Part shown: positions 8,246-8,503 of the stretch, one piece after another
Numbering within the stretch: the stretch's first letter is position 1
Layout of the letters: each line of letters opens with the position of its first letter
Assembly: GCF_003334815.1 (NCBI RefSeq)
Contig: NZ_QOWO01000057.1
Origin: Escherichia coli
GTDB lineage: Bacteria > Pseudomonadota > Gammaproteobacteria > Enterobacterales > Enterobacteriaceae
Length of the DNA stretch: 13,444 nt
Direction: 5' to 3' (one strand)
Translations under genes and position numbers: made by a program
Notes under the pieces: model-generated
Told to the model about the DNA's origin: nothing
What the model saw: only the letters and a program-made list of their open reading frames with translations
The model's database searches: none

Positions 8246-8503
8246 TTAACGCGGAGAAATCCCGTAATGTGCAATGCAGCGCCAGCCACCATCCTGCTGA
8301 CAATAAACTGATTCCGTATGCCCAGGGATCACCCATTGAATTTCCTCGCCAGGCGGACAGGTCAGCCAAATGCATAACCCGCAGCCGCCGCGTAAATCAC
8401 GGGGAATATCGCTGACGCGAAAAGTCATGCCCGCTGCCTGCAACGCCTTGCGGGTTTGTATGACGCCGACCGTGGAGTGAAATAAAAACAGATACTCTTT
8501 CAT
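8246..8503 (-). CDS. Small 85-aa ORF whose ATG overlaps the yjiL stop (ATGA); resembles the DUF3343 'putative Se/S carrier-like' small-protein family, and I do not recall it from K-12 gene lists
   Basis: [47 protein letters not shown]... Its start ATG (8503-8501) overlaps the yjiL TGA (8502-8500). It exactly fills the otherwise empty gap of about 250 bp between yjiL and yjiK. The motif pattern (aromatic/hydrophobic N-terminal strand, then I-P-R-D-L..G-C-G-L-x-I) resembles my memory of DUF3343 members (..P-T-P-R-E-I..S-C-G-L-A-I..). Weak SD (GAGAAAA). Confidence 0.5.

Follow-up and report, generated by a model that had tools for sequence, protein, structure and literature searches.

Escherichia coli ytiA encodes a DUF3343 miniprotein in a conserved trio with genes for a predicted double-cubane reductase and its activase, which in Firmicutes lies among selenium genes

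A stretch of 13,444 nucleotides (nt) from Escherichia coli (RefSeq assembly GCF_003334815.1, contig NZ_QOWO01000057.1), here called the window, was analyzed around an open reading frame (ORF) of 85 codons that is present on the minus strand at positions 8246-8503, between yjiL and yjiK. This ORF is the gene ytiA. It encodes a member of the DUF3343 (Se_S_carrier) family and directly follows the genes for a predicted double-cubane-cluster-containing anaerobic reductase (DCCP, here YjiM) and its predicted activase-type ATPase (YjiL). What is new here is the conserved trio of these genes and its embedding in selenium gene islands; the gene itself was already known and annotated.

The conservation of the trio was assessed in a DCCP-anchored scan with one genome per species, in which conserved DCCP peptides retrieved 80 loci (55-92% identity to YjiM). 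The six-frame ORFs of these loci were searched with the DUF3343 hidden Markov model (HMM), YjiL and YjiM. All 21 gammaproteobacterial DCCP loci sampled, from eight enterobacterial genera plus three Aeromonas, harbor DCCP, activase and DUF3343 genes contiguously and in that order. The stop codon of the activase gene overlaps the start codon of the DUF3343 gene as a 4-nt [A/G/T]TGA in 20 of the 21 and by 1 nt in the remaining locus. The first-pass annotation of the window had pointed to the ATG of ytiA overlapping the TGA of yjiL as ATGA, a geometry that is seen in the sequence and kept across genera. By this start/stop overlap, yjiL and ytiA are predicted to be a conserved, translationally coupled pair. 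Trios of HGD-D (DCCP), BcrAD_BadFG and DUF3343 genes were also found in Morganella, Hafnia and a further locus (L098), with stop/start overlaps of 8, 11 and 4 nt; their chromosomal settings are unlike that of E. coli, and yjiK was not called adjoining. Among the other 59 DCCP loci, nearly all of which are from Firmicutes, the activase gene is adjacent in 40 and a DUF3343 gene is located within 10 kb in 11. The co-occurrence of DUF3343 with the two other gene types, which had been put forward as a check on the first reading of the window, was thus seen throughout the gammaproteobacterial loci sampled and in a minority of the others. The corresponding features of the window are as follows.

9277..10428, minus strand: yjiM, double-cubane-cluster-containing anaerobic reductase (DCCP) as predicted by NF040772 and PDB 6ENO/7YYL.
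8500..9267, minus strand: yjiL, BcrAD_BadFG/acyl-CoA dehydratase activase-type ATPase, predicted ATP-driven reductase partner of YjiM.
8500..8503, minus strand: ATGA overlap, from the sequence, formed by the ytiA start (8503-8501) and the yjiL stop TGA (8502-8500).
8246..8503, minus strand: ytiA coding sequence, 85 amino acids (aa), ATG to TAA, DUF3343/Se_S_carrier miniprotein, from the ORF list, Pfam, RefSeq, the ratio of nonsynonymous to synonymous substitution rates (dN/dS) and an AlphaFold2 model.
8372..8404, minus strand: YtiA codons 34-44, the conserved loop, with the family-invariant Cys41 (TGC at 8383-8381) and the variable Cys44.
8182..8245, minus strand: ytiA-yjiK spacer of 64 nt with an AAGGGA Shine-Dalgarno-like element for yjiK, which lies outside the conserved module.

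Based on the NCBIfam equivalog NF040772 ('double-cubane-cluster-containing anaerobic reductase'), against which it scores 532 bits with a cut-off of 350, YjiM is a predicted double-cubane [8Fe-9S]-type reductase. The DCCP of Carboxydothermus hydrogenoformans, whose structure is solved (PDB 6ENO, 7YYL), is matched at E=4e-75, and the Cys columns C40, C59, C78, C108, C273, C302/304 and C335 show no variation when YjiM is aligned to that protein. The earlier description of YjiM as an HgdB-like component, i.e. of the 2-hydroxyacyl-CoA dehydratase type, did not hold. YjiL, which scores 358 bits against TIGR00241 (cut-off 125) and 252 bits against Pfam PF01869 (BcrAD_BadFG; E=7e-75), is the predicted activator of YjiM, an ATP-dependent electron-donating ATPase. 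YjiM has been named a probable 'class II' DCCP partnered with YjiL, in work that gives the physiological substrates of DCCPs as unknown and makes no mention of ytiA (PMC7317905). In E. coli, YjiM and YjiL correspond to DCCP and DCCP-R of C. hydrogenoformans, which were described as a two-protein system without mention of a third component or of ytiA/DUF3343 (PMC7317905, PMC9351452). In the transcriptome table of a ygfI mutant yjiM and yjiL change together with hyc, hyp and pflB (PMC9068703). Such a pattern is in keeping with expression under anaerobic conditions together with formate hydrogenlyase. The FdhF subunit of formate hydrogenlyase is a selenoprotein.

The 80 DCCP loci were also searched with SelD, EF2568-type lyase, YedF, YqeC and SelA sequences taken from DUF3343-anchored loci. 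All 11 Firmicutes DCCP loci with DUF3343 harbor SelD or a gene resembling selenocysteine (Sec) lyase of the EF2568 type, and most of them also YedF or YqeC. In C. intestinale (L039) the genes for DCCP, activase, SelD, YedF, DUF3343 and YqeC are contiguous. The locus of Eubacterium aggregans (L059) contains YqeC and, farther on, the EF2568-type lyase, YedF, DUF3343, DCCP and activase, and that of Holdemanella (L087) DUF3343, SelD and YedF, then lyase, DCCP, activase and YqeC. The order in Dorea (L063) and Claveliimonas (L091) is EF2568-type lyase, DCCP paralogue, DUF3343, activase and DCCP. These assignments were confirmed with curated models, which gave scores above their cut-offs for SelD (TIGR00476, 402 bits versus 125), YedF (TIGR03527, 237 versus 110) and YqeC (TIGR03172, 204 versus 73) and 444 versus 377 for TIGR01977; NF040772 was confirmed for both DCCP copies in the Firmicutes loci checked. 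No match to SelD, YedF, YqeC or Sec lyase was obtained in any of the 21 gammaproteobacterial DCCP loci, and no selenium gene was found near ytiA in the Enterobacterales and Aeromonas loci with listed neighbors.

The Firmicutes neighborhoods agree with two sets of observations that were not joined in the literature searched. Lin et al. (2015, PMC5322559) put forward DUF3343, which has a conserved Cys, as a selenium/sulfur (Se/S) chaperone, and a STRING table in that study lists, without comment, a 'CoA-substrate-specific enzyme activase' and a '2-hydroxyglutaryl-CoA dehydratase subunit' as partners of the Slackia DUF3343. Of 970 DCCPs defined by NF040772, 955 were found in SelD-encoding genomes, and Haft proposed the processing of a selenium compound or a selenium-bridged cofactor; DUF3343 is unmentioned there (bioRxiv 10.1101/2022.07.06.499078). 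A role of the module in handling sulfur or selenium, as suggested by the first-pass annotation, is plausible, and it is the selenium side that the gene neighborhoods strengthen.

Several gene arrangements in and around these loci were observed in addition. In Morganella (L014, 7342-10917) a gene for a pyruvate:ferredoxin/flavodoxin oxidoreductase of 1191 aa directly follows the trio, and a homologue is located just downstream of the activase gene in a Firmicutes locus (L056, 12334-15927); this enzyme might supply the ATPase with electrons of low potential. Two or three DCCP paralogues occur in some loci of Lachnospiraceae and Desulfotomaculaceae (L063, 6095-11152; L091, 6165-11152; L080, 5184-14225), and in two of these DUF3343 lies between the longer DCCP paralogue and the activase, unlike in the gammaproteobacterial order. 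Three metagenomic proteins of 217-220 aa (P0126, P0142, P0145) combine the C-terminal part of the activase with a YtiA-like stretch, which matches Pfam Se_S_carrier in P0126 only. They were dropped as Rosetta-stone evidence and most likely arose in gene calling on short contigs, through a frameshift or read-through where the ATGA overlap lies. Two long proteins (P0155, P0188) are unrelated repeat proteins.

DUF3343 genes are also located away from DCCP genes. Three distant members belong to strings of YedE (Sulf_transp), TusA/YedF and DUF3343 genes with no DCCP. Two of these strings are beside selD and a class-V lyase gene, one of them with YqeC and the other with selA and selB. One metagenomic member has a TusA gene on one side and a class-V aminotransferase gene on the other. 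The nearest relatives of YtiA outside the Enterobacteriaceae are of two kinds, those in the trios of Morganella, Hafnia and L098 and those in Proteus-type contigs, where DUF3343 follows a YedE/YeeE-like transporter gene (PF04143, Sulf_transp) and no selenium genes are in view. The start of the YtiA-like gene in these contigs (L016, 5926-7252; L017, 5926-7252; L100, 4926-6252) overlaps the transporter gene or follows it at a distance of 4 nt, with no intervening TusA/YedF gene.

The reading that we favor, at somewhat less than even confidence, takes YtiA to be a cytoplasmic single-Cys carrier that would hold selenium (or sulfur) on Cys41 and serve the ATP-driven YjiM/YjiL reductase. Cys41 would carry the chalcogen as a persulfide or perselenide-type adduct. 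YtiA might present a bound species of selenium, or less likely of sulfur, to YjiM, which would reduce it at low potential with energy from ATP; alternatively, YtiA might accept what YjiM has reduced and deliver it toward the selenophosphate synthetase SelD and other acceptors. YtiA would be made by termination-reinitiation at the yjiL stop (ATGA), tying its amount to that of the ATPase YjiL.

A number of points weigh against this reading. Ordinary thiols readily reduce perselenides and selenotrisulfides, which leaves the need for an ATP-driven low-potential reductase unexplained. The literature searches returned no experimental evidence for a chalcogen adduct, for an interaction of YtiA with YjiM/YjiL or for expression of YtiA. 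DUF3343 is absent within 10 kb from 48 of the 59 non-gammaproteobacterial DCCP loci, and therefore DCCP needs no cis-encoded DUF3343. Near these DCCPs DUF3343 occurs about 10 times per Mb of sequence searched, and the chance expectation of about 0.7 per Mb (2 copies per 3-Mb genome) is a rough estimate and not a computed control. The third string of YedE, TusA/YedF and DUF3343 genes adjoins an operon of the SUF type for Fe-S clusters, and DUF3343 also occurs in SelD-lacking organisms, with no Se-specific subfamily definable (PMC5322559). Sulfur instead of selenium is therefore possible.

These last two observations would also fit a sulfur carrier, in which YtiA shuttles persulfide or thiosulfate-derived sulfur, YjiM/YjiL acts on sulfur species and the nearby selenium genes reflect shared sulfur and selenium machinery. 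The closest YtiA relatives without a DCCP, which come from Proteus and related contigs, follow YedE/YeeE-family transporters with no selenium genes in view, and this points in the same direction. However, all Firmicutes DCCP loci with DUF3343 contain selenium-specific markers above curated cut-offs (SelD, YedF of TIGR03527, YqeC or the EF2568-type lyase), and DCCPs are almost confined to SelD-encoding genomes (bioRxiv 10.1101/2022.07.06.499078). We regard a dedicated sulfur carrier as unlikely. A little less probable still is a function in cofactor maturation, in which YtiA would deliver the bridging sulfide or selenide that joins the two [4Fe-4S] cubanes of YjiM, so that the enzyme and not its substrate would be acted on. 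The strict adjacency and stop/start overlap with the gene for the ATPase of DCCP in all gammaproteobacterial loci would be in line with such a function, and a selenium-bridged cofactor is a formal possibility according to Haft (bioRxiv 10.1101/2022.07.06.499078). Nevertheless, many DUF3343 genes stand beside YedE, YedF or class-V lyase genes with no DCCP, and most Firmicutes DCCPs, as counted above, have no DUF3343 nearby; the general role of the family is therefore not DCCP maturation.

The favored carrier function places the chalcogen on a residue that was examined for conservation over 30 diverse DUF3343 members with 20-38% identity to YtiA. F8, P34 (30/30) and C41 (30/30) are invariant, and G42 (28/30), L21 and Y67 are nearly so. 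An AlphaFold2 model of YtiA from an alignment of 28 sequences (pLDDT 89, pTM 0.80) contains the elements β1 (residues 2-8), α1 (11-23), β2 (28-32), a loop (33-42), β3 (43-49), α2 (53-57), β4 (63-70) and β5 (73-79). According to this model, we infer a ferredoxin-like β-α-β-β-α-β-β domain with Cys41 exposed on the β2-β3 loop. The family signature P-x-P-R-x-L-x-x-x-C-G was placed in this loop because P34, C41 and G42 are conserved there. C44 is present in only 17 of the 30 members; the enterobacterial copies have C41-G-L-C44, whereas C44 is missing from the DCCP-linked copies of Aeromonas, Morganella, Hafnia and Firmicutes. Since C44 is variable and C41 invariant, the core chemistry of the family is single-Cys and not CxxC. 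A reading of the motif as a CxxC redox or metal site was downgraded accordingly, as the second Cys is absent in 13 of the 30 members and in most DCCP-linked copies outside the Enterobacteriaceae. Searches of PDB sequences with narrow and broad profiles revealed no solved structure of the DUF3343 family, the sole match being a chance one (E=0.25) to a ferredoxin-type CxxC segment.

YtiA is a full member of PF11823 (Se_S_carrier), with the same size of 75-90 aa and the same invariant Cys in the P-x-P-R-x-L-x-x-x-C-G loop. The Se/S proposal for PF11823 rested on neighboring genes such as those for YedF and Sec lyase, whereas ytiA of Enterobacterales and Aeromonas is instead in an operon with DCCP and ATPase genes. 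No experimental paper on a DUF3343 member was found in the literature search, and the family name Se_S_carrier is a prediction. The description of YtiA as TusA-like in the first-pass annotation could not be upheld as a statement of homology. YtiA gave no hit to TusA/SirA (PF01206) at E<=1, and comparison by hhalign of the DUF3343 profile with a TusA/YedF-domain profile, built from genes neighboring DUF3343, gave a probability of 4.6%. YtiA lacks a C-P-x-P motif at the N-terminus of helix 1, where the TusA-domain alignment shows an invariant C-P-x-P-V, and a structure search with the YtiA model, whose predicted fold is a generic ferredoxin-like one, did not recover the TusA fold. The Cys of TusA is at the start of helix 1, whereas the invariant Cys of YtiA is in the loop before β3. 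Because profile similarity is absent and the Cys is in a different place, 'TusA-like' describes a functional analogy only and not family membership. Like the carrier proposed here for YtiA, TusA, YedF and YeeD (PF01206) are small cytoplasmic single-Cys proteins, and both groups are encoded beside YedE/YeeE-type transporters and class-V lyases, with DUF3343 often directly after TusA/YedF. Their chemistry, a relay of Cys persulfide or perselenide, is likely to be analogous.

The best structural matches of the YtiA model are PII/GlnK-type and other small regulatory ferredoxin-like domains. In Foldseek the resemblance to PII/GlnK (E about 0.02, template modeling score about 0.5, identity 11-21%) is a likeness at the level of topology only, and membership in the P-II family (PF00543) was rejected, as no P-II Pfam hit was obtained and the fold resemblance is generic. 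PII/GlnK-like proteins and other small domains of the ferredoxin-like β-α-β-β-α-β type, such as DUF2179 (3HLU), the C-domain of UreE and CutA, have this topology in common with YtiA and carry their functional loop between β2 and β3. YtiA might on this ground be a non-catalytic small subunit or regulator with a PII/ACT-like fold, which would bind YjiL or YjiM and tune ATPase activity or electron transfer, or act as a CxxC redox switch, with no chalcogen involved. Two features would suit this function: the conserved residues lie on the counterpart of the PII T-loop, and the enterobacterial copies have the motif C41-G-L-C44. The motif is the variable feature described above, and we consider a regulator improbable.

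The assignment of YtiA to DUF3343, proposed in the first-pass annotation, was confirmed with the Pfam model PF11823. YtiA scores 52 bits (E=5e-14) with a gathering cut-off of 25, and the match spans residues 3-59, which correspond to positions 1-57 of the 69 of the model, i.e. most of its length. Its 85 aa are within the size expected for a stand-alone member (about 70-100 aa), and the invariant Cys of the family is present; the hydrophobic N-terminal strand and the Cys-containing motif noticed earlier are both in the translation. Among three E. coli alleles (window, K-12 and a third) dN/dS in the ytiA frame is 0.07-0.15, comparable to the 0.13-0.21 of yjiL in the same comparison. Four of the five other frames over ytiA gave values of 1.1-2.1; the fifth, an antisense frame sharing third positions, gave 0.25 but contains 6 stops. 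This shows that ytiA is under purifying selection. Homologues with an intact frame occur in Escherichia, Citrobacter, Klebsiella, Raoultella, Kosakonia, Phytobacter and Atlantibacter (28 aligned homologues), which settles the question of frame conservation raised with the first reading. The gene is carried by 5386 of 5426 complete E. coli genomes, in 5382 of which at least 80% of its length is matched.

These data bear on the view that the frame is spurious, a chance untranslated opening in the yjiL-yjiK spacer. For this view it may be said that no data on the expression of E. coli ytiA came up in the literature searches and that the Shine-Dalgarno-like sequence upstream of its ATG is weak. 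It is effectively refuted by a PF11823 score 27 bits over the threshold, by low dN/dS values limited to the ytiA frame, by a frame that is intact in the 28 homologues aligned, which represent many genera, as well as in each of the 21 gammaproteobacterial loci, and by the confident AlphaFold2 fold.

The gene is not novel, and the claim that it is probably unannotated and had been overlooked fails. In NC_000913.3 (MG1655) ytiA is b4715 (YP_009518833.1, 'uncharacterized protein YtiA', 4563668-4563925), placed between yjiK (b4333) and yjiL (b4334). The b-numbers of the two neighbors are consecutive, as the first-pass annotation stated; ytiA was added later under a higher number. The RefSeq annotation pipeline PGAP calls ytiA in all 70 sampled E. 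coli genome rows, labeled either 'DUF3343 domain-containing protein' or 'putative Se/S carrier protein'. Literature searches found no paper on E. coli ytiA/b4715 and returned mostly the unrelated ytiA of Bacillus subtilis, an L31 paralogue.

At the junction of yjiL and ytiA the minus strand of the window reads CAG AGA AAA CGC GCA TGA AAG AG. The statement that the ORF exactly fills the gap between yjiL and yjiK is approximate, as the ytiA stop (8246) is followed by 64 nt before the GTG at 8181 where yjiK is annotated to start. A scan for promoters and terminators revealed nothing in this spacer, nor anything beyond chance inside the module, and an Rfam search of the window gave no match. The longest yjiK ORF (7321-8292, ATG at 8292, 323 aa) would extend 47 nt into the 3' end of ytiA; this long start is unused by RefSeq, which places the start at the GTG preceded by AAGGGA (286 aa). 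The SdiA-regulated Pfam domain of yjiK begins at residue 74 of the long form. Further downstream, the yjiJ ORF (6030-7253, minus strand) ends with the codon at 6030-6032 and shares 33 nt with the 3' end of kptA (5508-6062, plus strand). The annotated ends of these two genes are 12 nt apart in MG1655, which implies a C-terminal extension of YjiJ by ~15 aa in the window strain.

Distinct classes of ytiA alleles were observed in E. coli, with 1938 genomes at least 99% identical to the ytiA of the window and 3344 at 90-95%. The synonymous divergence (dS) from K-12 is 0.15-0.19 in ytiA and yjiL (8246-9267), compared to 0.06 in the flanking yjiK (7321-8181) and 0.09 in yjiM (9277-10428). The higher dS and the distinct allele classes suggest an old recombination patch centered on the 3' end of yjiL and ytiA. 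A minority of E. coli genomes harbor a 2.1-kb gene for a pentapeptide-repeat protein between ytiA and the SdiA-regulated gene (E. coli VCSW7, L003, 3520-5634), at a site equivalent to the ytiA-yjiK spacer of the window near 8182-8245. In these genomes the C-terminus of YtiA (88 aa) is a different one, and the match to the window breaks off ~50 nt short of the 3' end of ytiA. Of the 5392 matches to the module region in the E. coli collection, 3 are on plasmids, and yjiL and yjiM were found together with a Klebsiella-origin gene for a transporter of the major facilitator superfamily on an IncC NDM plasmid in Providencia (PMC10215782). The module is therefore occasionally mobilized.

The neighborhood pattern links three things that are separate in the papers searched, namely DUF3343 as a candidate Se/S chaperone, DCCP with its ATPase, and the co-occurrence of DCCP with SelD. 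Extended from the favored carrier function, yjiM-yjiL-ytiA might constitute a minimal ATP-driven selenium-mobilizing reductase, in which YtiA holds selenium on Cys41 and the double-cubane enzyme, powered by YjiL, turns bound or imported selenium species into the selenide required by SelD; alternatively, the cluster itself might be selenium-bridged and YtiA the supplier of the atom. We put this extension forward as a doubtful proposal. In either version it would provide the first physiological role for double-cubane proteins, explain why genomes with DCCPs almost always encode SelD, and give DUF3343 a function. As E. coli carries the minimal trio, this hypothesis on two orphan families is testable by standard genetics in E. 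coli K-12.

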